The translations under genes and the position numbers were made by a program. A stretch of 64,000 nucleotides of DNA from an uncultured Gammaproteobacteria bacterium (GTDB lineage: Bacteria > Pseudomonadota > Gammaproteobacteria > CAWCPV01), in the NCBI GenBank assembly GCA_963797555.1, contig CAWCPV010000004.1, positions 640,001 through 704,000 on the forward strand. Reading direction: 5' to 3'. Every line of letters starts with the position of its first letter. Position 1 is the first letter of the stretch. Below the pieces are notes generated by a model that was not told where the DNA came from, did not search any database, and saw only the letters and a list, made by a program, of their open reading frames with translations. This document shows positions 291-46,301 of the stretch, piece by piece.

Positions 291-334
291 ATCGAGTCCG
301 ACCCCGAGAGCCGCATATCGTGTCTGACCCCATT
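291..334. repeat. Orphan ends of type-A Y1/RAYT-like element
   Basis: ATCGTGTCTGACCCC (317-331) matches the element IR at 14278. A variant, ATCGAGTCCGACCCC, lies at 291-305. Confidence 0.7.
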
Positions 335-381
335 AGTCGCACCTGCACCTGGAAAGGCGACGAAGACTTGGCAGGAAGCAT
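334..381 (-). pseudogene. intI: Probable 5' stub of an integron integrase, cut off by a Y1-element end
   Basis: ATG at 381(-) with an AAGGGA RBS reads MLPAKSSSPFQVQVR, resembling IntI N-termini (SPFL.QVR). It is divergent from attI/cassettes, has a LexA box upstream, and runs directly into AATGGGGTCAGACACGAT. Confidence 0.5.
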
Positions 382-398
382 GGCGGCATCCCTTGTGG

Positions 399-443
399 CT
401 GTATGGATACCCAGTATATAGAACTTTTGGAGAACTTTTTCAA
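399..443 (-). promoter_or_regulatory. LexA (SOS) box overlapping a sigma70-like promoter of the intI stub
   Basis: CTGTATGGATACCCAG (CTG-N10-CAG) at 399-414. On the minus strand, TATACT/TATATA -10 at about 413-420 and TTGAAA -35 at 438-443. Confidence 0.65.
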
Positions 444-660
444 GGATAGACGGACGATGTCCGCCTATCCCCCGAACGGATGCCTGCCGTCCCCGGCCCC
501 GTCAGTCATCGAGTATGATGCAAGTGGCTGTTCGTCCGAGCGAACGACGCCGTCCGAGGTGACCCGCATGGTCCAGCGGCTCGGGGCACGGGCTTGCGGG
601 ATAGGCGGACAATGTCCGTGTTTAAACACGGACAACGTCCGTCTACTCATATGTTAGCGC
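444..660 (+). other. Putative attI region with core site GTTAGCGC (653-660)
   Basis: GTTAGCGC is the exact complement of the first cassette's reconstructed R'' GCGCTAAC, with no attC hairpin upstream. Three CGGAC-NNN-GTCCG palindromes lie at 451, 606 and 629. Confidence 0.6.
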
Positions 661-1534
661 CCAGGTGGAACCCAATTGCAAGAGGAGAAGATAAGATGCC
701 TACTGAAACGGAAATTACAGCAGTTGCCGAGATGGAACTAAAAGCTCTGTTGACGGAGCTATCTGAAGGAGAGCTGATTGCGTTAGAGCTTGAAGTAGTT
801 GAGGATGCAATCAAAGATCCGATATTCCAGGTTAGTGATTGTCAAGTTGAGGTTTCGAGCGCCACTGAAGAAGAGCTGCTCTCCCTAAGATCTCAACTTG
901 AGCAAACAGGCCTTGCCCCTGACAAATCAGACGGCTTCATCAAGGGACTTGCCAAGCGTTTCGGAGGCAAGTATGCAGACGTTCTCGGCTTTAGACCAAT
1001 TCCTCCAGGGGAAAGCAATCCGGACCTATCGTCGATTGACATGCTCTTTGGTCGCGTGCACATGCCTACCGTAAAGGGGTTTACTACCAAACTGACTATT
1101 GAGCGAGAACAAGAAAAAGAGACCGATATAAGCATCAAGATTAACGGTTTCGGGGCAGGTGGCAGCAAATCATTTGCTTGCAAAATAAGTCAATCTCAAA
1201 CAATTAGCGCAATTCCGGTTAATCTAGTAATTCCTGTATCTGTTAAGATCGACAGGTTTGAGAATTCGGCAGGAGATTATTTCTATATATGCTATCCGGT
1301 GAACATTAGCCGAAATGTCGTCGCAAGGCGGACCAAGAATCAGTATGACTCGGAAGATGGATACAAAGAGCTCAGCAAGCTCCCTGGAATTCTGGATCGT
1401 TATGATACCACCGTACTATCCGAGCCGCAGCCGGTATCAGAGGTAACCGTTCAGACCCTCCCACCAGTTGATCGATGCGTTAAGAGCGCGTCCAGCGCAG
1501 CAGAGCCGCTCGGCTTGTCGTACACTCCCGGCTC

Positions 1535-2262
1535 ATGGATCAAGAGCCCTCTATTCCGCAGGCGCGCAGGCGATCACGGCGAGCGGCCGGAGCTTTACCG
1601 AAGAGGAGATCTCCGCCATCGTCCGAATGGTGTCGATGTGCGTGGGCCTGAGTCGTTTTGAGCTGGCGCAGACCATCTGTGAGCTGCTGGGGTGGAGACG
1701 GGACAACGGAGCCCTGAAGTCCCGCGAGTGTCGGGATCTACTGGAGCGGTTGGAAGCTCGGGGGGATCTGGGGCTTCCCGCCAAGCGCACGGGCAGGCCC
1801 AAGGGGCGGCGCACCTGCACTGCGCAGACCGATCGGGGCGAACGCCGCGGCGAGATTGCCGGTGCGCTGCAGGAGGTGGCCCCGGTGGAGCTTCAGTTAG
1901 TGCGCCAGGCCGAGGGACGGGCATTTGTGGCGCGAGCTTCTCGCGCGCTATCACTACTTGGGCTATGCCACACCCTTTGGGGCCCAGTTGGTCTATCTCA
2001 TCCGCTCCCAGCGCCGGGAGGGGGAGGTGTTGGGCGGGCTCACCTACACCAGCCCGGCCTGGCGCATGCAGGCCCGCGATGCGTGGATCGGCTGCGCTTT
2101 GCCGGGACCTGCTACCGGGCGGCCAACTGGTGCGAGGTGGGCGAGACCAGCGGACGCGGGCGCATGGACCGTGCGCACCAACGCCATGGCAGAGCGATAA
2201 AGCGGGTCTTCCTCTACGCTCTGCACCCGCAGGCCAGAGAGCGCCTGCGCGGTGAGCGCTGA
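1535..2262 (+). pseudogene. DUF4338 (DruA-like) passenger gene, internally deleted and frameshifted
   Basis: Motifs ICELLGWR, YHYLGY, RDAWIG and GTCYRAANW..VGETSGRGR are spread across frames. Confidence 0.75.
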
Positions 2263-2264
2263 AC

Positions 2265-3879
2265 TCAAGCGGGCGCAGGAAGCGGCGGTGCCTCAAAGCC
2301 GCGGCGTCGGTGGGCGAGGACATCTCTGAGATAGCACAGCGGGGAGCTCAATCGCAGCCGAGAAGTCTCGATCACACTGGCGAGCAGCGCCAGCGCCCGG
2401 CTGCCTTGTTCGCTGCGGGTCCCCTGGCTGATGCGACGCAGAATCACCCAGTGACGCAGCGCCCGCTCCGCCACGTTGTTGGTCAGCGGCAGCTGAGGCT
2501 CATCCAACACCCGGAAGATCGCCCCCCAGTCGTTGAGCAGCTCCTTGCCCAGCGCCTGGGCCTTGTCATAAGGGCAGCAGCTCATGCGTTCACACAGGGC
2601 CGTGAGCTCGTTGAGTCTCGCCCGGGTGGGCTTGCCGCAGGGAGCCGCCCGGTCCCTCGCGGGCGTGATAGACGGCCTGCATCAGCGCATCGAGCAGGTC
2701 ATAGACCGCCTGGCCGTAGCCCTGGAGGGTGGGCGAGAGGCAATCCCTCAGGCCCCGGGCCTTGCGAATGAGATGCGCCCAGCAACGCAGGCGCTTGGCA
2801 TAGTCCCGATAGACCTGGTACCCATCGCTCATCAGATAGCCGCAGAAGAGATCCTCGATGAGGTTCTGAAACATCTCTTTGGCGCGAGAGCCGACCAAGA
2901 ACAGCGCCGTCGAGGCCGAGATGAACACCCATAACCACAAGGGCTCTCCCCATTGCTTGTGCGGTGTCTCATCGGCATGCATGAGGGCCGCTTCCAGCAA
3001 CTGGGTCACCAGCTCATCCTCGACCGGCTCGCAGGCACGGGCGGTCTCCATCACGCATTGGTGGAGGGTGCCGATGCCGAGCGCCAGCCCAAACACCTCG
3101 TGCAGGAACTCCCGGACCAGGCGGATGGACAGGCGCATCCGAAACCGCAGCCAGACGATGAAGGCGCACAATCCCGGCCCCACCAGGCGCCACTCGCCAA
3201 GCTCCACCCCTCGCCAGCATCCCAAGTGCTCGGGCGCGCGGTGCGGCGCCTGCCGGGTCTCATGACCACAGTCGCAACGGCTCTGGTAGTATACCTGCCG
3301 CGTGCAGGTCAGGCGCAGCCCCGGCGCCTGCTCATCGCCAAAGACCAAGTCCAGCCTATCAAAGGCGGTGTAGGGCTTCGCCTGCTCAGGATTGAGCGCC
3401 CCACCACACAGCGCACAACTTCCCGGCCGATGATGGTCCCAATCGGTGACTGTCAGCTTCTGGGCGCGCCCGAATCCCTGGGAGCCAGGCTGCCGGCCCG
3501 CTCGGCGCTGCGTCCCTGAGGTCTTGCCACTCGTGTCCTTTGCGCCCTTCTGGCCGCCAGCCCCGGGGAGGCCATCCTCCTCAGAACGGCTCTTGGCCTC
3601 CTCGTCCTCAGGACCGGCGTCGGCCTCTTCGTCCTCCCGCGCACGCAGCCAGGGGTCTTGACTGCTCGGCGGACGAGAGCTATTGGAGGGACTCTGATTG
3701 AGCCGCTCCCACGCTTCCTTGAGATCCTGCAGCAGGCGGATGCTCAGCGCTGCCAGCGCATCGGGATCCTTCTGCCTCAGCTCCAGAATGCGCTCCTCGC
3801 TGAGCTGACGAAGGTCGTGCTCCTTGAGCACCATGATTGTGTGTGACAGTGAGGTCGAGGAACATCCTGCCAAGGGCAC
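2265..3879 (-). pseudogene. IS66 transposase (TnpC-like), +1 frameshift near 2616
   Basis: Motifs NSSRPPS, zinc finger, HADET, SDGY, CWAHL.RK and TNNVAERALR. There is one extra T relative to the intact copy 2. Confidence 0.9.
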
Positions 3880-4175
3880 CCAACTGTCTCACGCTGGAAC
3901 CGTTTTGTCCAGCCCTCCGGGTCAAAATATTCCAGGGGGGTGAACGGTTACTATCAGAGTGGTTAAAAGAATCTACAAAAATAGATTTAAGCGCGGACAT
4001 TGGCTCGCTTCTTGGCATACCTGGAGTAGTTAGAGTTTCTGGTGTGGCAACGGTAAGAAATACGCTGCAAGTTTCATACTCGTTGCCTGTTGGTCATGAG
4101 TTTGCGTCGCATGTCCAGAATGAAAAGTATTTCAAACATATCTGGGCAACTAAATACTAGCTTGGAAACGCGCTA

Positions 4176-6105
4176 ATCGGGTAGCCGGGGGTGTTTAACC
4201 CCCAGCCCCCACACCACCACGGCATGCGGGTCCGCACCGGGCGGTTCACAAAAGCGGAGCACCCGACGACATCAAGCATAGCCATGGGCACGGAGCCACA
4301 AAGCGCGTACCGATATCAAGCCCTGGCGTTCCAGCCAGTCGTTGGTCATCCCGGTCTGTGTGGCCAGCGTCTTCGACAGGTGCCAGTAGCTTTGGGAGCT
4401 GAGCGCCGTCAGAATCGCATGGCGTTTACCGGTACCCAGGGCCAGGAGATTTCGGACCTTGGTGCGCACCCGACGCCACTGTTTCCAGTAGCACATGCGG
4501 ATGCGCCGCCGCAGCCATGGGTCAATCTCTGGGATGGGACGGTAGTAGTCCGAGATACCGAAGTAGTTCATCCAGCCCCTGACGTAGCGGGTGAGCCGGT
4601 CGAGGCGGTAGTCCATCGAGACTCCCCAGGAGCGCCCGGTCAGTTTCCGGACACGGTGCCTGAAGTCCTCGAAGGCTTGGTCGGACCAGCGCAGCTTGCT
4701 TCCACGGAACGTGAATCCCAGGAATTCCACCGCGTCGGTCTTGACCACCCGGCTCTTGGACTCGTTGACCACCAGCTTGAGGCGGGTGGTCAAGAACCGC
4801 GTGATGCTGGCCTTGACGCGTTCACCGGCGCGCTCGCTTCTGACCAAGATAAGCAGGTCATCGGCGTATCGCGCGAAGCGGTGTCCGCGCCTCTCCAGCT
4901 CCTTGTCGAGGTCGTCCAACAGGATGTTGGCCAGCAACGGCGAGAGCGGCCCGCCCTGAGGCGTGCCGAGTTCCGTTGCCTGGATGCACTCCCCGACCAG
5001 TACGCCCGAGCGCAGGTAGCGGCCTATCAGGGCGAGGAGGCAGGTGTCCTTAACCTTCCTCGCCACCCGGGCCATCAGGACATCGTGGTTCACTTGGTCG
5101 AAGAATTTCTCCAGGTCAAGGTCCACGGCGAACCGATAGCCCTCGCCGATATACCGCTGCACCTGGCGCAATGCTCCATGGGCGCAACGTCCCGGTCGGA
5201 AGCCGAAGCTCGACGCCGAGAAGTCCGGGTCGAACAGCGGCGTGAGGACTTGCCCGATAGCCTGCTGGATCACCCGGTCGAGCACCGTCGGGATACCCAG
5301 CAGCCGTTCGCCCCCATTCGGCTTCGGGATACTCACGCGTCTCACCGGCTGGGGTTGATAGGTGCCATCGAGCAGGGCTTGGCGGATAGCGGACCAGTGC
5401 AGCCGTGCAAACGCCGGGAAGCCCTCAAGGCGCATCCCGTCAACGCCGGGCGCCCCCTGGTTGGCCTTCACCCGCTTCCATGCGCGCTTGAGGTTTGCGC
5501 GGTCCACCACCCGCACCATGAGGTCGTCGTGCAAGGCTGGCTGCGCAAGCACACGCCGGTCAACAACTCCCCCGGACGGGTTCAACATCGAGACCGAGTG
5601 ACTCACGGCTCCTCCTTGTACTCTCGTGTTCGGCCCTTCACCGGAAGTCCCTCCTGGACGCCTCGGCTACTACGGCCTCTGCTGACTTCTGCCCGGTCAC
5701 GCCGCGCGTTGCCGCGGGGCGCGCTGCCGAAGGCGGGCGGTAGGGTCCGGTGGTCGCCCCAGGGCTTTCGCCCTGGACCTCAGTCCGGCTCCCATAGCCC
5801 GATCCGGCCGCAGGCCGGACAGACCTCCCCGAATAAGGACATGGACTATCGGTGCACAACCGCCGCATTTACCCTATCTCCTGTACCCGGTGGGCTTCGT
5901 CATCTTGTGCTGACTCGCCCGGAGACTAAGCCTTCTACGCGGTTTCTGTTCGTCGGCTCGCACCTTTGCGCTCGGGCTTCCTTCAGACCGCCCCTCGCGG
6001 GACCGCCCTTGCCGTCGGCTAGTAGTTGTATCTGTCCCGAGGGACATACCAGGTACTCCTACAGGGGACTCTCACCCCATCAGTCCATGCCCATGCCGGG
6101 CGTAC
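4176..6105 (-). mobile_element. Group IIC-attC intron inserted in the bottom strand of cassette 1 attC
   Basis: 5' end GTACGCCCGGCATGG and 3' end ..GGCTACCCGAT with DV/DVI. Removing the intron rejoins GCGCTA+AC into an attC R'' site (bottom-strand TTGT/TA target). Confidence 0.9.
4272..5606 (-). CDS. ltrA: Group II intron reverse transcriptase/maturase (class C, no En domain)
   Basis: [37 protein letters not shown] and a maturase X domain. Confidence 0.95.
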
Positions 6106-6198
6106 ACAATGCGTTGCAGGTAACGTCTGTCCCGCTACGCGTGCCAGACGCACCTGAATACAACCGTTATGTTTTAAAAGGAAGATGAGGACTAGTTG

Positions 6199-7002
6199 AT
6201 GGCTGTGCAAAAAGCATTTCACGAAGGATTTGCACGCTTCTTTGAAGCGCCTTCTCGAGAAGCACTACGTGATCTTTTAAAACACAGTGTGGGCGAAACA
6301 GATCACATTGATTTTAAGGCAGAATTACCGGAAAAGGCTAAGTTAGCAAAGCATTTTCTAGCATTTGCCAATAGTGGAGGCGGAGCCCTTATTGTTGGCG
6401 TTACAGATGGTGAGTTGATGGAGCCAGTTGGTATTTCACAACTTACAGACAAGGCTGATATCCAAAAAATGGTATCGCCATACTTACCGGACTCTCTTCA
6501 ATATGAGGTTTTCGATTTTTCTTTCACTGAATCGGAATACCCAACTATCAAGGGAAAAACATTTCAGGCCATTCTTATTGAATCAAATGACAAAGACCTG
6601 CCGTACGTTTGCAAGCGAAACGGTGATTCGATACGAGAAAATGTTCTTTATGTAAGAAAAGGCACAAATTCAACAGAAGCAAACCATGATGATTTTCAAA
6701 AAGTTATAAATAAGCGCCTAGATACAGGATATTCTTCAACAAGAACACTTAGCCTAGAAGAGCATCTTGAACAGTTAAAATTATTGTATAAAGAAATACC
6801 CAGAACTATAAAGATACCAAAAGAAGGCGCATTCGATCAGCTACATGCGTTCGCGCGCATCGCAGGCGACATGCAGAATTTATTCGGAAAGCTTTACGAA
6901 ACTAAGCCAAATCCTGAATTCCCATCTGAAGACTATGATACGTTTGTACTTAGGCTGATTGATATGAAGAAGGCTCGTATCAAGCAGGAAATTGAGGTAT
7001 GA
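6199..7002 (+). CDS. Cassette 2: AlbA_2/Schlafen-domain protein
   Basis: GETDHIDFK, AFANSGGGALIVGVTD, YVRKGTNST. AT-rich and bounded by GTTATGT/ACATAAC. Confidence 0.85.
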   Translation: MAVQKAFHEGFARFFEAPSREALRDLLKHSVGETDHIDFKAELPEKAKLAKHFLAFANSGGGALIVGVTDGELMEPVGISQLTDKADIQKMVSPYLPDSLQYEVFDFSFTESEYPTIKGKTFQAILIESNDKDLPYVCKRNGDSIRENVLYVRKGTNSTEANHDDFQKVINKRLDTGYSSTRTLSLEEHLEQLKLLYKEIPRTIKIPKEGAFDQLHAFARIAGDMQNLFGKLYETKPNPEFPSEDYDTFVLRLIDMKKARIKQEIEV

Positions 7003-7003
7003 A

Positions 7004-7084
7004 ACATAACAAGGCCGTAAACTCGGACGCATTTTTTGTTTGCTGCGCTCACTACAAATGCGCCGGTTACGGCTGGCGTTGGGC
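7004..7084 (+). repeat. attC site
   Basis: ACATAAC..GCCGTAA..GCATTT/AAATGC..TTACGGC..GTTGGGC. R'' is complementary to the previous core site. Confidence 0.9.
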
Positions 7085-7175
7085 GGCCGCTGGCACCGCC
7101 TCGCTTGATCGACCGCTGGTTGGGGACGACCCTACCCCTCGCCGCTCTGCAAGGAGAAACGGAAGGAGACCTCAC

Positions 7176-8030
7176 ATGAGAGCCAAGCTACAGCCACAAA
7201 TCGCCGTCTTCGCCAGGAACCACCTTCCCTATCTCGATTACGCCACTTCCGTTGCGAGCGATGATTCGGAACGGAAGGTCACATTTCGCAGTCGCAAGGC
7301 GTGGAGCGGCGCGAAACGGGCGCTTGAAGCCCTCGGGCGCCTCCCGGTGTTCTTTGCGGTCGTCGGTCAAGCCGACGTTCGCTATAAGGCGACTCTCCAA
7401 GAGATCCAGCTCAACCCTCGCACTGACGATGTCGATACGCAGCGACTACTGAGACTTGTTCCACCACAAACTGAAGGCGAGGGTCTCTGGGACGAGGCCG
7501 TTCACACACTCTACGTGGTCTCAGGCTGCTATCGTATCGACCAGCCACGGCCACTCTCAAGCCTAAATCTGGCCGACGACGGTTCACCCCTGTCTGAGAA
7601 CTTCAAATACTCATACGCCCTCGTGCGTGACGAAGCCATCGACATTCGGGACAGGCCAGCGCCCGACACGGCGCCACCTCCCGCACGGGTGGACGCTACC
7701 ATATCGCGGATCATTCGGGATACGGCTCTCGTCTGTAGGCTAAAGGCCTTCTACAATGATACGTGCCAATTGTGCGGCACACGGCTCACCCTTCGCAATG
7801 GCCGGGGCTATTCAGAGGGGCATCACCTGCGCCCCCTCGGCGCGCCACACGACGGACCGGACGTAGCCGACAACATTGTCATCGTCTGCCCGAACTGCCA
7901 TGCCCTTCTGGATCGCTGCTCCCTAACACTCGAGACCATTCCGAAATGCCATCCCGACCACCCGATCAGCCAGCTCTACATCAGCTACCACAACGCCCTG
8001 CCGGAACCGGGAGCGCAAGCGATCCGCTGA
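7176..8030 (+). CDS. Cassette 3: HNH endonuclease with an N-terminal accessory domain
   Basis: CQLCG..SEGHHLRPLG..DGPD..NIVIVCPNCHALLD, with a GGAG RBS before ATG 7176. Confidence 0.85.
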   Translation: MRAKLQPQIAVFARNHLPYLDYATSVASDDSERKVTFRSRKAWSGAKRALEALGRLPVFFAVVGQADVRYKATLQEIQLNPRTDDVDTQRLLRLVPPQTEGEGLWDEAVHTLYVVSGCYRIDQPRPLSSLNLADDGSPLSENFKYSYALVRDEAIDIRDRPAPDTAPPPARVDATISRIIRDTALVCRLKAFYNDTCQLCGTRLTLRNGRGYSEGHHLRPLGAPHDGPDVADNIVIVCPNCHALLDRCSLTLETIPKCHPDHPISQLYISYHNALPEPGAQAIR

Positions 8031-8041
8031 AGCAAAGGGCC

Positions 8042-8099
8042 GCCCAACAACCGCTTGCACCGGACTCGCTTCGCTCGCCGGTGAAGCGAGGCGTTCGGC
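8042..8099 (+). repeat. attC site (58 bp)
   Basis: GCCCAAC..CGCTTGCACCGG..CCGGTGAAGCG..GTTCGGC. Confidence 0.92.
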
Positions 8100-8128
8100 G
8101 TCACATGCAACGATGAGGTTCGCTCCGA

Positions 8129-9016
8129 ATGTCCGTTAAGAATCGCATCCTCCAAGAACAGCGGGATTGGGCTACCGCGTTGGATCTGGAAGTCGATTCC
8201 AGAGGCTACCTCAGTAGCTATCAACTCAATCTCTTTCGGCCGCTGAATCAGAAATCGCTGGAGGCCTTTAACCGTGGTAGTGGTTCGGAGTTGAAGGACA
8301 CGCCGAGGAAACCGGCCAAGATGCGGGCGCTTCATTCATCTTCGGCATTGGCCGTGAACGTCTTTGATACATGGATGGATAGAAACGCCTCGCCGCTGCT
8401 GTCTGTCCTGAACTTGGAGCCGGGGGAAGTGGATGTTCATTTCGAAGAGCAATATCCCACCGGGCTTCCTGGCAATCCACCAAACCTCGATGTCGTGCTG
8501 AGGAGGTCCGGCGGTCACGTCATCGCCATAGAAAGCAAGTTTACAGAGTGGCTAACGCCGAAAGCCAAAAAGGCGCCCCCGCTCAAGGACAAATACTTTC
8601 CGAAAGGTGCCGGTGTCTGGGAGCAAGTCGGCCTTCCCAGGAAACAGCAATTTGCGGCGGCGCTCCACGCTGGAGAGGTCGTCTTCCGTCATCTGGATGC
8701 ACCGCAGCTCATTAAGCATAGTCTCGGCCTAGCCACACACTTGGGCCGCGACTTCTCGCTTCTGTATGTGTTCTATGATGCCGATGGTGTCGAAGGGGAA
8801 GTGCATCGGTCTGAGATCTCTATATTCGCAGCTCAGGTCGGTTCCGAGTTCGGATTTCAAGCCATTTCCTACCAGCAGGTGTTCCCCGAATTGGCGGCGC
8901 GACATGACGCACCCGAGGAATATCTCAGCTATCTGAAGGCGAGGTATTTCTCAGGAGACGCCGAACAACGCGTTGCAGGTGACGTTTGGCCCACTGCGCG
9001 CGCCAGCCGCGCCTGA
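8129..9016 (+). CDS. Cassette 4: PD-(D/E)xK restriction-endonuclease-like protein (PGN_0703-like)
   Basis: HSSSALAVNVF, FEEQ..PPNLDV..IAIESKFTE, and QLIKH motifs. Confidence 0.75.
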   Translation: MSVKNRILQEQRDWATALDLEVDSRGYLSSYQLNLFRPLNQKSLEAFNRGSGSELKDTPRKPAKMRALHSSSALAVNVFDTWMDRNASPLLSVLNLEPGEVDVHFEEQYPTGLPGNPPNLDVVLRRSGGHVIAIESKFTEWLTPKAKKAPPLKDKYFPKGAGVWEQVGLPRKQQFAAALHAGEVVFRHLDAPQLIKHSLGLATHLGRDFSLLYVFYDADGVEGEVHRSEISIFAAQVGSEFGFQAISYQQVFPELAARHDAPEEYLSYLKARYFSGDAEQRVAGDVWPTARASRA

Positions 9017-9031
9017 ACGCAGGCGTTCGGC
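8960..9031 (+). repeat. attC site overlapping the 3' end of cassette 4 ORF
   Basis: GCCGAAC..GCGTTGCAGG..CCTGAACGC..GTTCGGC. Confidence 0.88.
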
Positions 9032-9055
9032 GTCTTAGTGTTAGAGAAGCGCAAT

Positions 9056-9370
9056 GGGGTCAGACATGATAATCTGTGCTATGCTTCGTGCAGTCACTTC
9101 ACGACCTGAACCGCCATGGCCCGCCTTCCCCGCTACGTCATCCCTGGGCAGCCGCAGCATATCATCCAGCGCGGCAACAACCGCCAGGTGATCTTTGCCG
9201 CGGATGCGGACTATCAGTTTTTTCGCGATGCCCTGGTGGAAGCGGCAAGTGAGCATGGTCTGTCGATCCACGCGTATGTCTGGATGACCAACCACATCCA
9301 TCTTCGGGCCACACCTGAAGGCGACCACAGCATCAGCAAAGTGCTCCAGTCAGTGGGTCGGCGTTATGTG
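9056..9370 (+). mobile_element. Type-A Y1/RAYT-like element, truncated (transposase 5' part from 9116)
   Basis: Left end GGGGTCAGACATGAT. MARLPR..HIIQRGNNRQ..MTNHIHL (HUH) is nearly identical to 13581. Confidence 0.85.
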
Positions 9371-9396
9371 GGAATGTGGAATGGGGTGTGGAATGG

Positions 9397-9950
9397 GTAG
9401 AGTAGAGGGCAGGTGTCCGAGACCGTAGGCTGGGCCTATCTGTTTCCGCCCCTTTCGTCTGGCGGTGCCTCAAGAGCCCATCCGTAGCCGCAGTAGCCAG
9501 CCCCCTCTCATCAAACCGTGCATACGGTTTTCCCGTACACGTTCCGATGCTCTTCACGCCAGGGCATGCGCCGTGCGCCAGGGTGCCGTCGTCGCCAGCT
9601 TGAAGAGTCCATAACGGGCAGGTGCTCTCCGGACGGGAAAGCGCCGGTACGCCTGCGCCCGGCTGAGGAGCTTGTGGCGCCGACGCAGATGAGTACGTAC
9701 CCGCTCTTCCACGTGCAGCTTCACCTTGGACAGTGCCTGAGTGCAGTTGCGGTGGTGAAAGTAGTGGCTCCAGCCCCGCAGGCTCCGGTTCAGCTCCCCG
9801 ATGATCTGGGGCATCGGCACCGGGGTCCGCCGTCGAGGAGTCAACTGCTTGGCACGGTCTTTGATGCGCTGCACCGAGCGCTTCGACGGTTCCACATGCG
9901 GGTAGCGTTTGCCGCTGTGGCGACTGCGCCGCAGGCGGAAGCTGAAGCCG
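9397..9950 (-). mobile_element. 3' fragment of a second group II intron (RT C-terminus, DV, long DVI)
   Basis: DV CGTGTACGGGAAAACCGTATGCACGGTTTG, end CTCTACTCTAC, and maturase remnant LRGWSHYF. Confidence 0.85.
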
Positions 9951-9956
9951 CCAGCC

Positions 9957-10783
9957 AAAGGGGCCAGGGTCGCATTATTTTGCTATGATAAGTCCAATGC
10001 CCCGCCGCCCCCGCATCCATCTTGATCGCGTACCGCTGCACATCGTGCAACGCGGGCACAACCGCCAACCGTGCTTCTTTGGCGAAGAAGATTATCAGGC
10101 ATACCTCCACTGGTTGGGCGAAGCGTTGAAGAAAGAGCAATGCGCGCTTCACGCCTACGCGTTGATGACCAACCACGTCCACCTGCTTCTGACGCCGGAA
10201 CATGCCCAAGCGGTTCCCCGGCTAATCATTGCCTTGGGGCGGCGCTACGTGCAGTATATCAACACCACCTACCGCCGGACCGGCACCTTGTGGGATAGCC
10301 TGGGATAGCCGTTACAAATCCTCGCTGATCCAAGCCGAAACCTACTTGCTTGCCTGCCAGCGATACATCGAGCTCAACCCCGTACGGGCGGCCATGGTGG
10401 ATGATCCTGCGCATTACCGCTGGACGAGCTACCGTCACAACGCCCTGGGGCAGGTCAACCCTTGCCTTACCCCCCATCCTCTGTATCTGTCGCTGGGCAG
10501 GGATGCGAAGGAAAGGCAAGCTGCCTACCGGAGCCTGTTCCGGGCGCAACTGGACCAAGAAGCGGTCAACGACCTACGGCTGGCGCTCAATCAGAATCAG
10601 CCTTTGGGCAATGCACGGTTTTATGCCAACATTGAGGCAGCGACCGGCCAACGGCGGGAGCCGAAGCCGCGAGGCAGGCCGTGTGCCCGGCGAGACGACT
10701 CCGTCGCGGCATGACCCAGGTCAGGGAGAACTGGCGGTATGAATGCAGTTTATGCAGCAGAAATATGCGAGCCTGGCCCCTTT
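9957..10783 (+). mobile_element. Type-B Y1/RAYT-like element, copy 1; transposase frameshifted by a 10-bp duplication
   Basis: 19-bp IRs AAAGGGGCCAGGGTCGCAT/ATGCGAGCCTGGCCCCTTT; HIVQRGHNRQ, MTNHVHLL, YIELNPVRA; TGGGATAGCC x2 at 10291-10310. Confidence 0.88.
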
Positions 10784-10807
10784 AATCGCTTTAATCGCGG
10801 TCAGAAC

Positions 10808-11281
10808 ATGGCGCACGAGACAAACGATCCTTTCGGCGTCCGCTCTGCCTTCGCGCAGATTCAGAGACGAACGCATTCAGGGCTTGCAATTGCAGTCGCA
10901 GCAATCTTGGATAGTCAGCTCGAACTGTGCCTGAAGCAGGCCATGCTCCCGATGCCGAAGAAGCTATACGCCCAACTCTTCGACCCAATGCGCGCCTTGG
11001 GTAGCTTCGCTAGCAAGATCACAATGGCATACGCCCTGGGCATCGTCACTAGAGACATCTACAACCGCTTAGAGAACGTCCGAAAGATCCGCAATGCTTT
11101 TGCTCACTCGACCGTCGTTCTGAACTTTGAGAGTGCTCCAGTGGCGCCTCTGCTGGATCGACTGAAGAAGTCCATGGAACTGAAGACCAACTCACCGCAG
11201 GGACAATTTCTCGAGTGTGTAAAGCCCATTGACGAGGCGCTCAACGCCTACTTGAAATCGAAGGGCGCGCAGGCGTTGTAA
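10808..11281 (+). CDS. Cassette 5: MtlR-like/HEPN-fold protein
   Basis: LGSFASKITMAYALG..KIRNAFAH (RxxxxH). Followed by R'' ACCTAAC at 11298-11304. Confidence 0.75.
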   Translation: MAHETNDPFGVRSAFAQIQRRTHSGLAIAVAAILDSQLELCLKQAMLPMPKKLYAQLFDPMRALGSFASKITMAYALGIVTRDIYNRLENVRKIRNAFAHSTVVLNFESAPVAPLLDRLKKSMELKTNSPQGQFLECVKPIDEALNAYLKSKGAQAL

Positions 11282-11304
11282 CCGGAGCTTCCGTGAGACC
11301 TAAC

Positions 11305-11417
11305 CAATAAGGATTGAGGCGACCCGAGGGGTCGTTTCAATCCAGTGTTCAAGAAGCCCAGTGGTGGGCGTGGCTCTTTAACAGCAAGGGGATTGCTTCA
11401 GCGGCGTGTGTGAGGGC
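11305..11417 (+). other. Structured non-coding segment replacing most of cassette 5 attC; possible IS110-family end
   Basis: Hairpin GGATTGAGGCGACC/GGTCGTTTCAATCC begins just after TAAC, and no attC right arm follows. Confidence 0.35.
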
Positions 11418-11418
11418 T

Positions 11419-12245
11419 AAAGGGGCCAGGGTCGCATTATTTTGCTATGATAAGTCCAATGCCCCGCCGCCCCCGCATCCATCTTGATCGCGTACCGCTG
11501 CACATCGTGCAACGCGGGCACAACCGCCAACCGTGCTTCTTTGGCGAAGAAGATTATCAGGCATACCTCCACTGGTTGGGCGAAGCGTTGAAGAAAGAGC
11601 AATGCGCGCTTCACGCCTACGCGTTGATGACCAACCACGTCCACCTGCTTCTGACGCCGGAACATGCCCAAGCGGTTCCCCGGCTAATCATTGCCTTGGG
11701 GCGGCGCTACGTGCAGTATATCAACACCACCTACCGCCGGACCGGCACCTTGTGGGATAGCCTGGGATAGCCGTTACAAATCCTCGCTGATCCAAGCCGA
11801 AACCTACTTGCTTGCCTGCCAGCGATACATCGAGCTCAACCCCGTACGGGCGGCCATGGTGGATGATCCTGCGCATTACCGCTGGACGAGCTACCGTCAC
11901 AACGCCCTGGGGCAGGTCAACCCTTGCCTTACCCCCCATCCTCTGTATCTGTCGCTGGGCAGGGATGCGAAGGAAAGGCAAGCTGCCTACCGGAGCCTGT
12001 TCCGGGCGCAACTGGACCAAGAAGCGGTCAACGACCTACGGCTGGCGCTCAATCAGAATCAGCCTTTGGGCAATGCACGGTTTTATGCCAACATTGAGGC
12101 AGCGACCGGCCAACGGCGGGAGCCGAAGCCGCGAGGCAGGCCACGTGCCAGGCGAGACGACTCCGCCGCGCATGACCCAGGTCAGGGAGAGCTGGCGGTA
12201 TGAATCCAGCTTTATGCAGCAGAAATATGCGAGCCTGGCCCCTTT
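11419..12245 (+). mobile_element. Type-B Y1/RAYT-like element, copy 2 (same frameshift)
   Basis: Near-identical to 9957-10783, with the same IRs and the same duplication at 11753-11772. Confidence 0.88.
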
Positions 12246-12276
12246 AATCGCTGTTCACATCACCTTGGAGATCGTC

Positions 12277-12654
12277 ATGAAATATCTGCTTGTTCTCGCA
12301 ACTCTTGTGGCAAGCGGTACGGCATCAGCTGCGAGGCTGCCGTGCTCAATCCACGCCAAGACGGGCGCTTCCGCAGCCACGCTCCAGAGCCTTAGCAAAA
12401 TATCGATCGAACAAGCACGGGCAACTGCTCTCTCCGCCGTCGGTGCACAATCGACGGCGGTGGCCGAGGGGGAGCTTGAAGCCGAGCACGGTTGTCTTGT
12501 CTACTCGTTCGACATCCGTCTCTCTCCTCAGGCTACTGGGGTAGAGGAGGTCATGGTCGATGCTGGTAACGGCAAGGTGTTGTCGCATAAGCATGAAACA
12601 CCGCAGCAAGAAGCCACTGAGAAAGCTAAGGATGCAGCTGCTAGTCACAAGTAG
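12277..12654 (+). CDS. Cassette 6: secreted PepSY-domain protein
   Basis: Signal peptide MKYLLVLATLVASGTASA; ISIEQARATAL, ELEAEHGCLVYSFDI, VDAGNGKVL. Confidence 0.85.
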   Translation: MKYLLVLATLVASGTASAARLPCSIHAKTGASAATLQSLSKISIEQARATALSAVGAQSTAVAEGELEAEHGCLVYSFDIRLSPQATGVEEVMVDAGNGKVLSHKHETPQQEATEKAKDAAASHK

Positions 12655-12682
12655 TCACTGCAATTAGGTAAGCGACGTTGCC

Positions 12683-12730
12683 GCCCAACCCTGCGCTCCA
12701 GCCGACGGGCACGCCTTCGGCGTGGGCGCG
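12683..12730 (+). repeat. Truncated attC (right arm lost)
   Basis: GCCCAAC CCTGCGCTCCAGCCGAC..CACGCCTTCGGCGTG, broken at CAATGG. Confidence 0.7.
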
Positions 12731-12736
12731 CAATGG

Positions 12737-13500
12737 GTAGAGTAGAGGGCAGGTGTCCCGAGACCGTAGGCTGGGCCTATCTGTTGCCGCCCCTTTCGTC
12801 TGGCGGTGCCTCAATAGCCCAACCATAGCCGCAGGAGCCAGCCCCCCTCATCAAACCGTGCATACGGTTTTCCCGTACACGGCTTTCCGATGCTCTTCAC
12901 GCCAGGGCATGCGCCGTGCGCCAGGGTGCCGTTGTCGGCAGCTTGAAGAGTCCATAACGTCCGTAGAGCACCTGCCCGGGAAAGCGCCGATACGCCTGCA
13001 CCCGGCTGATCAGCTTGTGGCGCCGACGCAGATGAGTATGCACCCGCTCTTCCACGTGCAGCTTCACCTTGGACAGTGCCTGAGTGCAGTTGCGGTGGTG
13101 AAAGTAGTGGCTCTAGCCCCGCAGGCTCCGGTTCAGCTCCCCGATGATCTGGGGCATCGGCACCGGGGTCCGCCGTCGATGAGTCAACTGCTTGGCACGG
13201 TCTTTGATGCGCTGCACCGAGCGCTTCGACGGCTCGACATGCGGGTAGCGTTTGCCACTGTGGCGACTGCGCCGCAGGCGGAAGCTGGAGCCGAGAAAGT
13301 CGAATGACTGTTCTCGGGCATCGACCACCCGCGTCTTGGCCTCGTTGAGGCTGAGACCCAGCCGCTCCAATATGCTGCGCAGCACCCGCATCGGTGGCTC
13401 CACCCCCCGTGCACACATGATGACCAGATCATCGGCATAACGCACGAGTCGGGCTCCATAGGCGCCCGCCAGGTCATGGCGCTCCCATATCCGATCCAGC
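12737..13500 (-). mobile_element. Longer 3' fragment of the second group II intron (pseudogene RT)
   Basis: RYADD, FDFLG, an internal TAG, DV/DVI and end CTCTACTCTAC. Closely similar to 9397-9950. Confidence 0.85.
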
Positions 13501-13522
13501 GCGTCCGCAATACGTCCGCAAT

Positions 13523-14303
13523 AGGGTCAGACACGATATTGTGCTATCCTTCGTGCAGTCACTGCACGACCTGAACCGCCATGGCCCGCCTTCCCCGCTA
13601 TGTCATCCCCGGGCAGCCGCAGCATATCATCCAGCGCGGCAACAACCGCCAAGTGATCTTTGCCGCCGATGCGGACTATCAGTTTTTTCGCGATGCCCTG
13701 GTGGAAGCGGCAAGCAAGCACGGTCTGGCGATCCACGCGTATGTCTGGATGACCAACCATATCCATCTGCTGGCCACACCGGAAGGCGACCACAGCATCA
13801 GCAAAGTGCTCCAGTCCGTGGGTCGGCGTTATGTGCAGTACTTCAATTTCACATACCGGCGCAGCGGCACCCTGTGGGAAGGCCGCTACCGGGCGACGGT
13901 AGTCGATAGCGAGCGGTATCTGCTGACGCTGATGCGCTACATCGAGCTGAACCCCGTGCGGGCGGCGCTGGTGGGGCACCCCAGGGATTATCCCTGGTCC
14001 AGTTACCGGTGCAATGCGCTCGGTGAGTCGGGATCGAACGCAGACTGGCTGAGGCCGCATCAGGAATATCTGCGCTTGGGCCGCACTGCGGCGGAACGGC
14101 AAGGTGCCTACCGGCAATTGTTCCGGGCGGCTGTCTCCGGCAACGACCTGAGGGAAATCCGGGAGTGCACGCACAAGGGCTGGGCGCTCGGTGGCGACCG
14201 GTTCAGGGACCAGGTCGAGGCGCTGGCGCAGCGGCGTGCAGCGTCCAAGGGTGTGGGCAGGCCGAGAAAGGATGATAATCGTGTCTGACCCGTGTCTGAC
14301 CCC
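13523..14303 (+). mobile_element. Type-A Y1/RAYT-like element, complete
   Basis: IRs GGGTCAGACACGAT/ATCGTGTCTGACCC, with 11-bp tandem duplications at both ends. Confidence 0.85.
13581..14288 (+). CDS. Y1_Tnp HUH transposase (REP-associated tyrosine transposase-like), intact
   Basis: MTNHIHLL (HUH), GTLWEGRY, RYIELNPVRA (catalytic Y), DYPWSSY. Confidence 0.92.
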   Translation: MARLPRYVIPGQPQHIIQRGNNRQVIFAADADYQFFRDALVEAASKHGLAIHAYVWMTNHIHLLATPEGDHSISKVLQSVGRRYVQYFNFTYRRSGTLWEGRYRATVVDSERYLLTLMRYIELNPVRAALVGHPRDYPWSSYRCNALGESGSNADWLRPHQEYLRLGRTAAERQGAYRQLFRAAVSGNDLREIRECTHKGWALGGDRFRDQVEALAQRRAASKGVGRPRKDDNRV

Positions 14304-14416
14304 GCTTACCCTTCCGCGCCCGACTTGCACCGGTATGCGCGGACGCCGCAAAATCAGCGCCCGGCGTTCGCGCGCTGCCTGCCCGATTTCTCCTGCCTGC
14401 CATAAGGAGACCGAAG

Positions 14417-16144
14417 ATGCACCTCCGCACCGGACTGTTCTTGGTCCTCGCCCTGGTCGCTCACCCGGTTAGTCTCGCCCAGGCCGGGCAGAGGACGCCC
14501 CCCGGTCCTTCCGACGTACTCGTGGTATCGGGAACCGTCACCAACTCCCAGGGCAAGGCGGTCAAGGGGGCAGAGCTAACTTTCTTCGTCGCAGGCCAGC
14601 GGGTGAAGCTGGCGGAGGAGGTGACGACCTCGGCCCATGGAACCTACGAGGCGCAGCTCGAGCTGCCGGCCGGCACGCTGCCCGGTGCCCGCGTGGAGGT
14701 AATGGCGGGGAGGCCATCCTACCAGTCGACCGGGCGGCTTTCTCTGCAGCACGTGTTGCCGGAGCAGGTGGACGGCGGCGGCAACCGCGTCTACCTCGCC
14801 CACTTCAGCACCACCCTGGAGCGCGCCTTGTCGCCGGGATTCTGGATAGCCGCGCTGGTGCTGCTCGGCGTCTATATTTTCATCGCCTTCGAACTCATGC
14901 ACCGCACGCTGGCTGCGCTCGTGGGGGCCGCGCTGATGCTGTTCGTGAGCTACACACTAGGCACCTTCGACCCGAGCTACCGCATCCTGGCCTTCGAGGA
15001 CGCCATGCACGCCATCGACGGGAACGTCATATTTCTGCTGATGGCGATGATGATCATCGTCGGGATCACCAAGAAGACCGGCGTGTTCCAATGGATGGCC
15101 TACAAGTCGTTCCAGGTGGCGCGCGGGAATATTTTCGTGCTGGCAGCGCTGCTCATGTTCGTGACGGCCGTGGTGTCCGCCTTCCTCGACAACGTGACGA
15201 CCATGCTTCTGCTCATCCCGGTGACCATCGAGGTTTCTCTCGCGCTCAAGCTGAGCCCGATGGTCCTGCTGATACCCGAAGTCTTCGCATCCAACGTCGG
15301 CGGCACGGCGACTCTGATCGGCGATCCGCCCAACATCATGATCGGGTCCTATGCGGGGCTCACCTTCATGGACTTCGCGCGGAATCTGACGCTGGTTTGC
15401 CTGATCGGGCTCGCGGCCTCCACGGTCTATTACGTGTTGTGGTTTCGAAAGGGCTACCTCGCGGCCAAGGTGGGCGACGTGCCCGCCATGGTCGCGCGTC
15501 TGCGCGAGGAGTACCAAATCACAGACCGCCCCCTGCTCATCAAGTGCGGGATCGTTCTGGCCATCACCATTTTTCTGTTCGTCGTTCACGGCGCGCTGGA
15601 CATGGAGCCGAGCATCGCGGCCATGACCGGAGCGGCGCTGCTGCTCATCATCAGCGACGTGCACATCGTCGAAATGGTGGAGAAGGAGGTCGAGTGGCCG
15701 ACCCTGATCTTCTTTATGATGCTGTTCATCGTCGTGGCTGGCGCCGAGCAGACGGGGCTCATCCAGATCATCGCCGAGTGGGTGCGCGAGGCATCACGGG
15801 GGTCCCTGGTGCTCGCCATCGTCATGATCCTCTGGGTCTCGGCGCTGTTCTCGGCGATTATCGACAACATCCCATTCACCGCCACCATGCTTCCCGTCGT
15901 GGCATACCTCACGACGAGCATCCCGGGTGCCGAGCATGGGATTCTCTGGTGGGCGCTCTCTCTCGGCGCCTGTCTCGGCGGCAACGGCACCCTGATCGGA
16001 GCGAGCGCTAATGTCGTGACGGTAGGTATGGCCGAAAAGGCGGGTTATCCGGTCTCGTTCATGGAGTACCTGCGGATGGCATTCCTCCCCATGATCCTCA
16101 CGGTGGTGATCGCCATGATCTGGCTGCTCCTGGTCGAGGTGTGA
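14417..16144 (+). CDS. ArsB/NhaD (SLC13-like) ion transporter with N-terminal periplasmic beta domain
   Basis: SAFLDNVTT, TLIGDPPNIMI, IIDNIPF, LGGNGTLIGASAN, and many TM segments. Confidence 0.9.
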   Translation: MHLRTGLFLVLALVAHPVSLAQAGQRTPPGPSDVLVVSGTVTNSQGKAVKGAELTFFVAGQRVKLAEEVTTSAHGTYEAQLELPAGTLPGARVEVMAGRPSYQSTGRLSLQHVLPEQVDGGGNRVYLAHFSTTLERALSPGFWIAALVLLGVYIFIAFELMHRTLAALVGAALMLFVSYTLGTFDPSYRILAFEDAMHAIDGNVIFLLMAMMIIVGITKKTGVFQWMAYKSFQVARGNIFVLAALLMFVTAVVSAFLDNVTTMLLLIPVTIEVSLALKLSPMVLLIPEVFASNVGGTATLIGDPPNIMIGSYAGLTFMDFARNLTLVCLIGLAASTVYYVLWFRKGYLAAKVGDVPAMVARLREEYQITDRPLLIKCGIVLAITIFLFVVHGALDMEPSIAAMTGAALLLIISDVHIVEMVEKEVEWPTLIFFMMLFIVVAGAEQTGLIQIIAEWVREASRGSLVLAIVMILWVSALFSAIIDNIPFTATMLPVVAYLTTSIPGAEHGILWWALSLGACLGGNGTLIGASANVVTVGMAEKAGYPVSFMEYLRMAFLPMILTVVIAMIWLLLVEV

Positions 16145-19261: not shown

Positions 19262-19295
19262 ACGAAGAACCCCGCTGCGTGGCGGGGTTCTTCGT
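19262..19295. terminator. Intrinsic terminator hairpin downstream of the csp gene
   Basis: ACGAAGAACCCCGC..GCGGGGTTCTTCGT. Confidence 0.8.
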
Positions 19296-19316
19296 GGCCG
19301 AGCGAGTCGCTTGCCT

Positions 19317-19520
19317 CTACGCCGGGACGACGTTGGTGGCAGCCGGACCCTTCGGGGTCGTCTCGGTATCGAACCTCACCTTCTGACCTTCGGCCAACGA
19401 CTTGAAGCCGCTGCCTGCGATGGCGGAGTGATGCACGAACACATCCTTGCCGCCGTCGTCCGGGGTGATGAAGCCGAATCCCTTACTGTCGTTGAACCAC
19501 TTGACCGTTCCTGTACTCAT
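19317..19520 (-). CDS. cspA: Cold-shock protein
   Basis: [24 protein letters not shown]; 67 aa. Confidence 0.97.
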
Positions 19521-20004
19521 CGGAAGAACCTCTGCAATATTAGTGAAGTAGAGGCTCGTGAAGGCAGTTTCTTGGCACAGAGGCTGCGGGAGTGACCACT
19601 GTTGAACAGGAGGGACTTCCGAGACGGTATCAGGACAAGGAACTGCACGGACGGCACTATACCCCGAGTCCTTTGAGAAAGCTAGTCTCTTCCCTAGCCC
19701 CGAACGGGACTTGTCCGGAAGGGCCTACCCGACCGCGAGATCCCAAAGCAACCGTGGCTATCGGGCCGCGCAGCAGATTCATCCTCGAGCGTTCAGACGC
19801 AGAGCCCGAACAGACGGGGTAAAGCAGTGGCCGCGGATGGTCGGTTAGTTGCCGTGTACGTCCACATCCCCGGGCTTCCGGCGCCGTTGACGGACGTGTA
19901 CGGGGAGCCCTGCTCACAGATGCGACCCCACCCCGGCGCTCGCAGGGAGTCTGACGCCGACGAGCTACGGCGCTTCGCGGTCAGGGGCGAGGCAGCCAAG
20001 GACG

Positions 20005-45946: not shown

Positions 45947-46301
45947 TGGTGGAGGCGGCGGGAATCGAACCCGCGTCCGCAGGCCCTCCGCCCTCGGCCC
46001 TACATGCTTAGCCGTGTCTTTGGATTTAACCGCCCGGTGCCCGACCGGCAGGGCAGGCAGGTAGCGAGTCCGTCGGGTTTAACACTTCGGCTCCGGACCG
46101 GCCTCAGTGCGAGCCTGCATGGGATGACCCCCGGACCCTGAGCGCACAGGCACACTCAGTCGGAGGCCTAGCTGAACTTAAGCAGCTAGGGCGAAGCTGT
46201 CGTCGTTGGCGACTATTCGCTTGCAGCTGGATTTACGAGGTCTGCTGCGCCTCGGCATGCACCTCAGGTTTTGCAACCCACGTCGAAACCAGGTCGCCCC
46301 C
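45947..46301 (-). ncRNA. ssrA: tmRNA, tag ANDDSFALAA
   Basis: 5' GGGGGCGAC, 3' TTCGATTCCCGCCGCCTCCACCA with G3-U pair, tag ORF, next to smpB. Confidence 0.97.

Follow-up and report, generated by a model that had tools for sequence, protein, structure and literature searches.

The window analysed here (the whole stretch of 64,000 nucleotides (nt) from an uncultured Gammaproteobacteria bacterium, located on contig C4; the labels C2, C3, C7, C9, C14, C16 and C18 refer to other contigs of the same genome) contains, at positions 291-14303, an island that is an integrase-less attC cassette array, i.e. a cluster of attC sites lacking integron-integrases (CALIN). Our preferred reading, to which we give a probability of roughly 0.65, is that this CALIN was invaded by one IS66-family element, by group II introns of the attC-homing type (one complete and two 5'-truncated), and by two families, A and B, of small Y1/HUH transposase units of the class called TIRtrons, and that the cuts in the attC sites were made by the introns. 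The TIRtrons are located beside or within cassettes and within intron fragments. An earlier note on this DNA had read the Y1 units as repeatedly cutting an integron at its recombination sites; only one of the four ends cited for this lies near an attC site, 25 nt beyond its end. For the present analysis, protein domains were assigned with Pfam and NCBIfam, group II introns and structured RNAs with Rfam, and integron integrases with the TIGR02249 profile. The attC sites were searched for with a home-made scanner that demanded RYYYAAC...GTTRRRY, pairing between the R boxes and a stem at the L box, and permuted cores were used as controls.

Interrupted attC sites and group II introns

The CALIN assignment follows from the presence of attC sites together with the absence of an integrase. 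Two co-oriented attC sites on the plus strand, 8042-8099 (GCCCAAC ... GTTCGGC) and 8960-9031 (R'' GCCGAAC, R' GTTCGGC), with cassette open reading frames (ORFs) between them, were found with the scanner, at least two such sites being the definition of a CALIN; both form hairpins with paired R boxes, and the bottom strand of 8960-9031 folds into a bulged one at -28.5 kcal/mol (z -3.8). An integron integrase near the window (C4:640-655 kb) was not found with TIGR02249 at E<=10; hyp genes lie upstream of the array instead, and membership of an integron was rejected on these grounds. The intI stub that had been placed at 334 was likewise not recovered, the same search giving no hit on C4 around 640-641 kb. 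A 16-codon ORF (383->336, MLPAKSSSPFQVQVRL) was considered as this stub and discarded, since it shows a faint likeness to the N-terminus of the IntI of this genome but no DNA similarity, and is too short. The only full intI gene, which scores above the TIGR02249 cut-off, is at C7:47556-48500, whereas C3:989422-989835 gave a partial match; the genome as a whole contains one complete integron (C7:43.7-48.5 kb), a duplicated 5' part of intI at C3:989.4 kb, and several CALINs. As a separate observation, two identical copies of a gene for a tyrosine recombinase of ~280 amino acids (aa), C4:568179-568697 and C4:573105-573623, are located in cassette orientation inside the attC array C4:566-574 kb and match the integron-integrase model partially (95 bits).

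The interruptions of the attC sites were made by group II introns and not by the Y1 elements, because a group II intron ends at each of the two breaks (6105/6106 and 12734/12735). The first is the boundary of a full-length intron on the minus strand (4188-6105; reverse transcriptase (RT)/maturase gene, 4272-5606, with the Pfam domains RVT_1 and GIIM; Rfam group-II-D1D4-3 at 5838-6004 and D1D4-1 at 5633-5723). This intron lies between a cassette ORF and the attC body that it split from the cassette (6106-6175, plus strand, 83% like attC 8965-9017 over 53 nt), on the bottom strand of the attC and opposite to the cassettes; the junction on the bottom strand reads ...CGCATTGT|GTACGCC. According to PMC3001079, IIC-attC introns habitually sit between a gene and its attC, in the bottom strand of the latter and facing against the cassettes, and intron 4188-6105 combines a ribozyme and an RT/maturase with exactly this kind of insertion. 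No endonuclease domain was detected in its protein by Pfam (RVT_1 and GIIM only). We liken it by habit (position, strand and RT/maturase) to group IIC-attC introns such as S.ma.I2, which occur in integrons and CALINs.

The second break concerns the last cassette of the array (12277-12734, plus strand), which consists of a small ORF (12277-12654) with a signal-peptide-like start and the 5' part of an attC (12684-12734, R'' GCCCAAC). The boundary at 12731, taken in the earlier note as a Y1 end in an attC right arm, is actually the 3' end of a minus-strand group II intron fragment (12735-13522; domains V-VI and a part of the RT including YADD; Rfam Intron_gpII at 12737-12887), and the nearest Y1 end is at 13523, where the fragment is 5'-truncated at a family A left end. 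The same cassette recurs without an intron and with a complete attC at C18:48813-49314. The window copy and the C18 copy diverge within the attC, and 10 foreign bases precede the intron fragment in the window; the junction 12734/12735 is therefore a rearrangement rather than the product of simple homing. The other fragment of this second intron type (9395-9950, minus strand, a 3' fragment with a maturase part at 9554-9958) is also 5'-truncated and is linked to the first family B unit by a 6-nt filler, CCAGCC (9951-9956). The island thus differs from what is usual for IIC-attC introns in the 5' truncation of the two fragments of the second type and in the position of the 12735 fragment, mid-attC with the 10 foreign bases, which goes beyond homing alone.

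For the second type of intron, ...CTACCC|ATT stands at three of four 3' junctions (window 12732-12737 and 9392-9397; C4:559740, where the exon reads ATTGACCCC), which thus end like the family A right end, ...GACCCC|ATT. This likeness may be due to chance or to a shared cleavage or insertion context. GGGTAG after a solo repeat on C18 was considered as an intron end and rejected, Rfam finding no intron there.

The Y1 units: class, copies and movement

The two families of ~0.8-kb single-gene Y1/HUH units with terminal inverted repeats are real, as judged from motif counts, paired arms and the Pfam model Y1_Tnp. The family A motif (GGGGTCAGACACGAT, at most 2 mismatches allowed) has six matches in the window (291, 317, 9056, 13523, 14278 and 14289) against 0.16 expected, and that of family B has four (9957, 10765, 11419 and 12227) against 0.00. 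The arms are 14 nt long with 100% complementarity in family A (13524-13537/14278-14291) and 28-29 nt long with 86% complementarity in family B. Y1_Tnp matched at 13581-14288 (E 4.1e-13), 9116-9400 (E 1e-6) and 9985-10308 (the N-terminal part of family B, E 8.2e-11).

Family A is represented by a complete unit (13523-14303, plus strand; left repeat 13523-13537, right repeat doubled at 14278-14292 and 14289-14303), which forms the right edge of the island, adjoining a CitMHS transporter gene, and carries the only intact Y1 gene (13581-14288, 235 aa); by a truncated unit (9056-9380, plus strand), in which the left end and about the first 88 codons of the gene remain, followed directly by a 14-nt filler of a GGAATG-type tandem "stutter" (9381-9394); and, on the minus strand at the island's left edge, by two solo terminal repeats with no Y1 gene attached (291-334; 2 mismatches in 291-305, none in 317-331, after which ATT follows). 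The family B units, copy 1 (9957-10783, plus strand; broken gene, ORFs 9985-10308 and 10350-10742) and copy 2 (11419-12245, plus strand), are 99% identical, and both are disrupted by an identical 10-bp duplication that is also present in a copy on C18. As the earlier note had stated, target duplications are absent: none flanks any copy in the window, and none was found at 46 of the 48 two-ended loci of other species.

By their sequence, the units are members of the described, little-studied TIRtron class (TIRYT, i.e. TnpA-Y1 subclass 2.1 or RAYT group 1). The expectation of an undescribed system was therefore not borne out, since the class was introduced under the names TIRtrons/TIRYT in 2013 and was placed within TnpA-Y1, as subclass 2.1, in 2018. 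TIRYT genes are located in TIRtrons, whose terminal inverted repeats share GGGGWSAS, and some of these repeats form moderately abundant families, whose members stand alone, in pairs or in clusters (Di Nocera, De Gregorio, Rocco 2013). Subclass 2.1, equated with TIRYT, was reported to have a median length of 238 aa, the HuH motif NHVH / NH[YF]H, the Y motif YIELNP / Y[IV]HLNP, a C-terminal extension with helix-turn-helix (HTH)-like similarity, and the flanking-repeat consensus GGGG[AT][CG]A[CG], and to be without repetitive extragenic palindromes (REP); the middle residue of the class 2 HuH motif may be L, V, I, F, Y or M (Quentin et al. 2018). The same set corresponds to RAYT group 1, described as the most insertion-sequence-like among the RAYT groups (Bertels et al. 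2017).

The units of the window agree with this description in having a Y1/HUH protein of ~235 aa with NH[IV]H and YIELNP (TNHIHLL and RYIELNP in the 235-aa family A protein; NHVH and YIELNP in family B, as read from the DNA), GGGGWSAS inverted repeats ~57-65 nt upstream of the start codon, and solo, paired and clustered repeats in the genome, and in lacking both GTAG REP hairpins and target duplications. The family A repeat carries GGGGTCAG, which fits GGGGWSAS, and that of family B carries GGGGCCAG, one position off the consensus, at W. The published HTH-like similarity was not recovered, residues 140-235 of the family A protein having no Pfam match at E<=10; the AlphaFold model of the 235-aa protein is poor (mean pLDDT 53) and consists of helices only in this C-terminal part (140-235). 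This is a very large protein family, with a match for each of the 8000 candidates scored; the 120 best of them (78-100% identity), from Thiobacillus, Rhodocyclaceae, Nitrosospira and others, are annotated just as "transposase".

Among other known systems, REPtrons (RAYT/TnpA-REP with REP or bacterial interspersed mosaic elements) share the catalytic motifs and the location of the gene between its own inverted cognate repeats, which are also scattered elsewhere. The closest NCBIfam model to the Y1 protein is REP_Tyr_transpos (77.8 bits, below the cut-off of 80), and the best solved relative is E. coli TnpA-REP (YafM, PDB 4er8; E 8e-7, with the HuH and Y motifs aligned). Membership was rejected on the score and on flanks without GTAG hairpins; in place of GTAG-tagged hairpins the units have long terminal inverted repeats, which number tens rather than hundreds of copies, and the Y1 protein is ~90 residues longer at the C-terminus. 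Elements of the IS200/IS605 type (IS608, ISDra2) have likewise a Y1 HUH enzyme and no target duplication, and the units probably work by the same single-strand "peel and paste" chemistry. The units differ from them in the terminal inverted repeats, which IS200/IS605 elements lack, in the lack of conserved subterminal hairpins, and in a Y motif of the type Y---NP (YIELNP) rather than Y---Q; since the NCBIfam model transpos_IS200 also gave only 21.6 bits against a cut-off of 55, this assignment was rejected as well. The ISCR/IS91 HUH elements occur beside class 1 integron cassette arrays and are tied to the one-ended mobilisation of neighbouring DNA, but they have large Y2 rolling-circle enzymes and no inverted repeats, and are unrelated in sequence to the Y1 proteins of the window.

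The traits of the family were further compared at 80 loci of Y1 relatives from other species (individual loci are labelled L0xx). The left repeat is present at 66 of the 70 loci with enough flank and the right repeat at 53 of 77, at a distance to the gene of mostly 56-70 nt. AATG precedes the repeat core in 48/66 and CATT follows it in 34/53, from which the full repeat was taken as (A)AATGGGGTCAGACACGAT. No hairpin between the repeat and the gene is conserved among the 80 loci, and an RT gene, looked for as a test of intron association, flanks one of them. Short tandem duplications of the flank together with the first bases of the terminal repeat were noticed at left and right boundaries of family A elements (e.g., L044, L046, L048 and L070); such stutters span the left boundary at 15/65 loci and at 0/176 control positions; in the present genome they were found at window positions 13501-13522 and 9369-9394, at C7:43625-43650 and at several further left ends. 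Plasmid-borne relatives were found on 27 of 72,556 plasmids.

The genome differs from the TIRtrons as described in having ~15 Y1 gene loci (tblastn) of at least 5 lineages, with near-identical, nested and broken copies, a gene-less derivative, and repeats distal to attC arrays. Near-full copies of family A are located at C3:778757-779534 and C3:414675-415422 (~90% identity), in addition to many fragments, and copies are nested within each other at C3:781 kb; copies of family B are located at C2:121937-122750, C4:563094-563910 and C18:47987-48781. A 148-bp gene-less derivative (C4:327408-327555) retains both ends only. Both flanks differ between family B copies 1 and 2, and copy 2 has the right flank in common with the C18 copy (C18:46851-48781), with unlike left flanks. 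Several left ends border on truncated DNA of unrelated kinds (an intron fragment at each of 9950 and 13522, a 27-nt piece of intron at C2:122750, and a dispersed repeat at 11410), the other half of which is absent beyond the right end; this counts, like the broken state of all five family B copies, against self-transposition. As the left ends coincide with one-sided junctions, an adjacent deletion or rearrangement is plausible; these junctions are best read as fitting adjacent deletion or recombination between copies, and by themselves are no proof of transposition. In favour of mobility stand the multiple copies and gene lineages, the nesting, the gene-less derivative and the differing flanks.

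If the units move, the paired terminal repeats could form a stem of 18-29 bp in single-stranded DNA, and the Y1 tyrosine, by analogy with TnpA-REP and IS608, would nick the single strand at the base of this stem and rejoin the ends, so that the unit would be excised and inserted without a duplication. Broken copies, including all of family B, would have been moved in trans or copied by recombination. The stutter copies, and likewise the deletions next to the left ends, could be traces of incomplete or repeated cleavage and joining at the boundary.

No orthologous locus was found via the right flank (14304-15500) among 30 relatives, which were same-class genomes only; the closest of the 30 genomes searched are class-level relatives. 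In public reads, the best runs contained at most 0.16 of the words sampled from 8000-15000, and all were metagenome contigs. Four metagenome contigs carry relatives of the element and the intron on short contigs, one of which joins 11441 to 12186 (a gene-less family-B-like form); these contigs are uninformative on excision in this organism.

As a side observation on the family A repeats, an insertion sequence (IS) with a DDE_Tnp_1 transposase (478-aa ORF, ends GGCACTTACTTAAG...) is repeatedly located beside or between them (C4:462315-463854 (L086), C3:781.07k, C3:783.26-784.77k and C4:526.94k; in other species, L028 and L066), which suggests that this IS targets the family A repeat, in the way that some IS elements use REP sequences.

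TIRtrons and attC arrays

The proposal that attC/attI hairpins are targets recognised by the Y1 enzymes, which would cut the integron there, is largely refuted, and we regard it as very improbable. It draws on the known action of HUH/Y1 enzymes on single-stranded hairpins, on the enrichment near arrays within the genome (see below), and on the end at 9056, which does lie 25 nt past the R' of a genuine attC (8960-9031), although outside the site. However, no Y1 end is located within any attC, the other three of the four cited ends fail, and the true attC breaks are intron ends. In addition to the ends at 334 and 12731 discussed above, the earlier note had predicted a core from an R'' (GACCTAAC) and taken the GGTC at 10799 for what is left of it, but GACCTAAC at 11297 opens a dispersed repeat of at least 110 bp; this repeat (11297-11410) folds locally, and unlike in attC its ends do not pair. 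Other array-adjacent repeats are inside cassette ORFs, 130-450 nt from attC. Neither was an attC excess found around the 80 relatives: attC-like hits (score >=26) occurred at 4 of the 80 loci versus 2 and 6 with permuted cores, and within 700 nt upstream at 4/64, all weak, versus 2 and 0 for the controls. The adjoining 60 nt on the outer side of the repeats are less stably folded than controls (-11.6 versus -14.6 and -12.2 versus -16.4 kcal/mol), a difference that base composition confounds.

Several results weigh against our preferred reading. For the comparison within the genome, a first set of attC arrays was dropped, because two arrays in it had been noticed via the nearby repeat, in favour of an objective set (at least 2 scanner hits with score >=27 within 3 kb), which contained six arrays versus none with permuted cores. 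Terminal inverted repeat (TIR) loci were within 500 bp of an array in 3/24 cases, versus 5/547 for other repeat intervals (Fisher p 0.003), and within 1500 bp in 4/24 versus 6/547 (Fisher p 0.0004). At six arrays or array pieces (the C7 integron, C3:991k, the window, C7:295k, C4:566-572k and C18), the terminal repeat is distal, with its left end facing the array and pointing in the direction of the cassettes, as read by eye at the junctions; C7:295k and C18 fall outside the objective set, in which C14:309k carries no repeat. With a laxer scanner (score >=30, within 1500 nt), 3/80 loci of other species had a hit versus 0 and 0 for the controls, and at L046 (a Methylocaldum metagenome-assembled genome) a family A relative (element, ~4925-5721; terminal repeats of 21 nt, left end with a threefold stutter) lies inside an attC array (3509-5962; attC 3509-3606, a cassette, attC ~4178-4243, an ORF to 4836, and, after the element, attC 5887-5962). 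Single attC-scanner hits were not commoner than with permuted cores (53 versus 30 and 54 at score >=24), so that only clusters of hits were used. All five family B copies are broken, and we know of no experimental demonstration of TIRtron transposition. 

These results could mean that the TIRtrons are live single-strand elements that preferentially land at the distal side of attC arrays, or join it by their left ends, in the orientation of the cassettes, with left-end-driven deletions and translocations that break integrons into CALINs and scatter array pieces. In addition to the enrichment, the same orientation in the six array-adjacent cases and the L046 element, this is in line with one-sided junctions that are always on the left (9957, 11419, 13523 and C2:122750), the right but not left flank shared between family B copy 2 and the C18 copy, the boundary stutter, and short pieces of flank that accompany it (AAGACGAATG, for instance, in three locations on C3) on the left side. 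The data come, however, from one genome with few independent events, and two of the six arrays were noticed via the nearby repeat. The repeat follows the attC at 25 to ~450 nt (1390 at C4:563k), usually within a cassette ORF, hence at no fixed site; at least 76 of the 80 loci of other species are without an attC-like hit; a strand bias relative to GC skew was not clear among the TIR loci; and homologous recombination between copies yields identical one-sided junctions. We therefore regard this possibility as unlikely, although not negligible. Conversely, the units might never transpose, being domesticated RAYT-like genes with flanking repeats whose extra copies arose through segmental duplication and homologous recombination alone. 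This possibility is in line with one inactivating 10-bp duplication common to three near-identical copies of family B, with the location of family B copy 2 and the C18 copy in one duplicated segment, with the rarity of plasmid-borne relatives, and with the very repeat-rich genome (572 repeat intervals of >=200 bp and >=85% identity, 674 kb of 5.35 Mb); subclass 2.1 was also reported to occur in few copies (a mean of 1.9) and to lack IS features (Quentin et al. 2018). Against it stand the differences in both flanks between family B copies 1 and 2, the nested family A copies, the gene-less derivative with both ends (and, weakly, the similar joined form in one metagenome contig), and relatives of ~80% protein identity in unrelated flanks across many families, many of them at contig ends, and we hold complete immobility to be rather improbable.

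We conclude that attC is not the target of the Y1 elements, and that the arrays are possibly favoured or tolerant places. Under the reading preferred here, of a CALIN invaded by an IS66 element, introns and TIRtrons, the nearness of the units to attC arrays most likely comes from the arrays acting as sinks that tolerate mobile DNA, and not from attC being recognised. The co-orientation of the repeats with the cassettes in this genome is left unexplained by it.

Other features of the island and implications

The island is bounded by hyp genes, ending near base 65, and by the CitMHS transporter gene (14417-16144); upstream of the window, HypF/HypE-like genes and a formyltransferase/hydratase fusion are located. 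The IS66-family insertion sequence (1425-3961, minus strand; two-frame transposase, 2590-3879 and 2265-2585, with Pfam DDE_Tnp_IS66; repeat interval C4:641425-643961) appears to interrupt the first cassette ORF (696-1424 ... 3962-4160). A cassette with two overlapping genes on the plus strand (6196-8030; Schlafen AlbA_2, 6196-7002, and HNH endonuclease, 6999-8030, by Pfam) is followed by attC 8042-8099 and by a cassette with a REase-ARP-type nuclease gene (8129-9031, plus strand; gene 8129-9016, attC 8960-9031), and the cassette nuclease genes at 6196-9016 are defence-like. A cassette-like ORF of 157 aa (10808-11281, plus strand) has weak DUF4145/MtlR similarity and no attC after it.

Two dispersed repeats are also present on the plus strand. 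The first (~218 bp, 443-660) is located just upstream of the first cassette and outside the Y1 elements. It has palindromes (GGATAGRCGGAC...GTCCG), and its copies (C16:30781-30996, C7:293148-293360, C4:573867-574052, C9:210772-210991 and C4:465-466 kb) are alike up to G|TTAG and then run into different downstream genes, in the manner of an att-type crossover; three copies (the window, C7:293k and C4:574k) are proximal to attC arrays, and this candidate may be an unrecognised recombination site. Of the second (11297-11410), the left part is present, cut short before family B copy 2. It has a hairpin with a perfect 15-bp stem (GGATTGAGGCGACCC...) but is not an attC; its copies are located at C4:34821-34925, C3:840696-840804, C3:160599-160708 and C2:14492-14551, two of them running ~40 nt further, and no Rfam family matched at the gathering score. 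In the window, Rfam found a tmRNA gene and a cspA thermoregulator (45947-46301 and 19262-19686), both ordinary.

The main outcome is a corrected attribution, namely that introns cut the attC sites and that the Y1 elements belong to a known class. The cutting by introns is known biology, and the residual novelty lies in the association and orientation of TIRtrons at array ends within this genome and in the boundary stutter. TIRtrons are barely studied, and their movement was not shown in the literature found using that term; the present genome, with one intact and several broken units, nested copies, a gene-less derivative and boundary stutter, is a natural test bed for it. If the association with arrays within the genome is true, TIRtrons would join IS elements and IIC-attC introns as a third kind of invader of integrons, and would provide a route to CALINs. 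If they are in addition live elements that join arrays, this would amount to an unrecognised remodelling of integrons by a HUH class thought to be nearly immobile.

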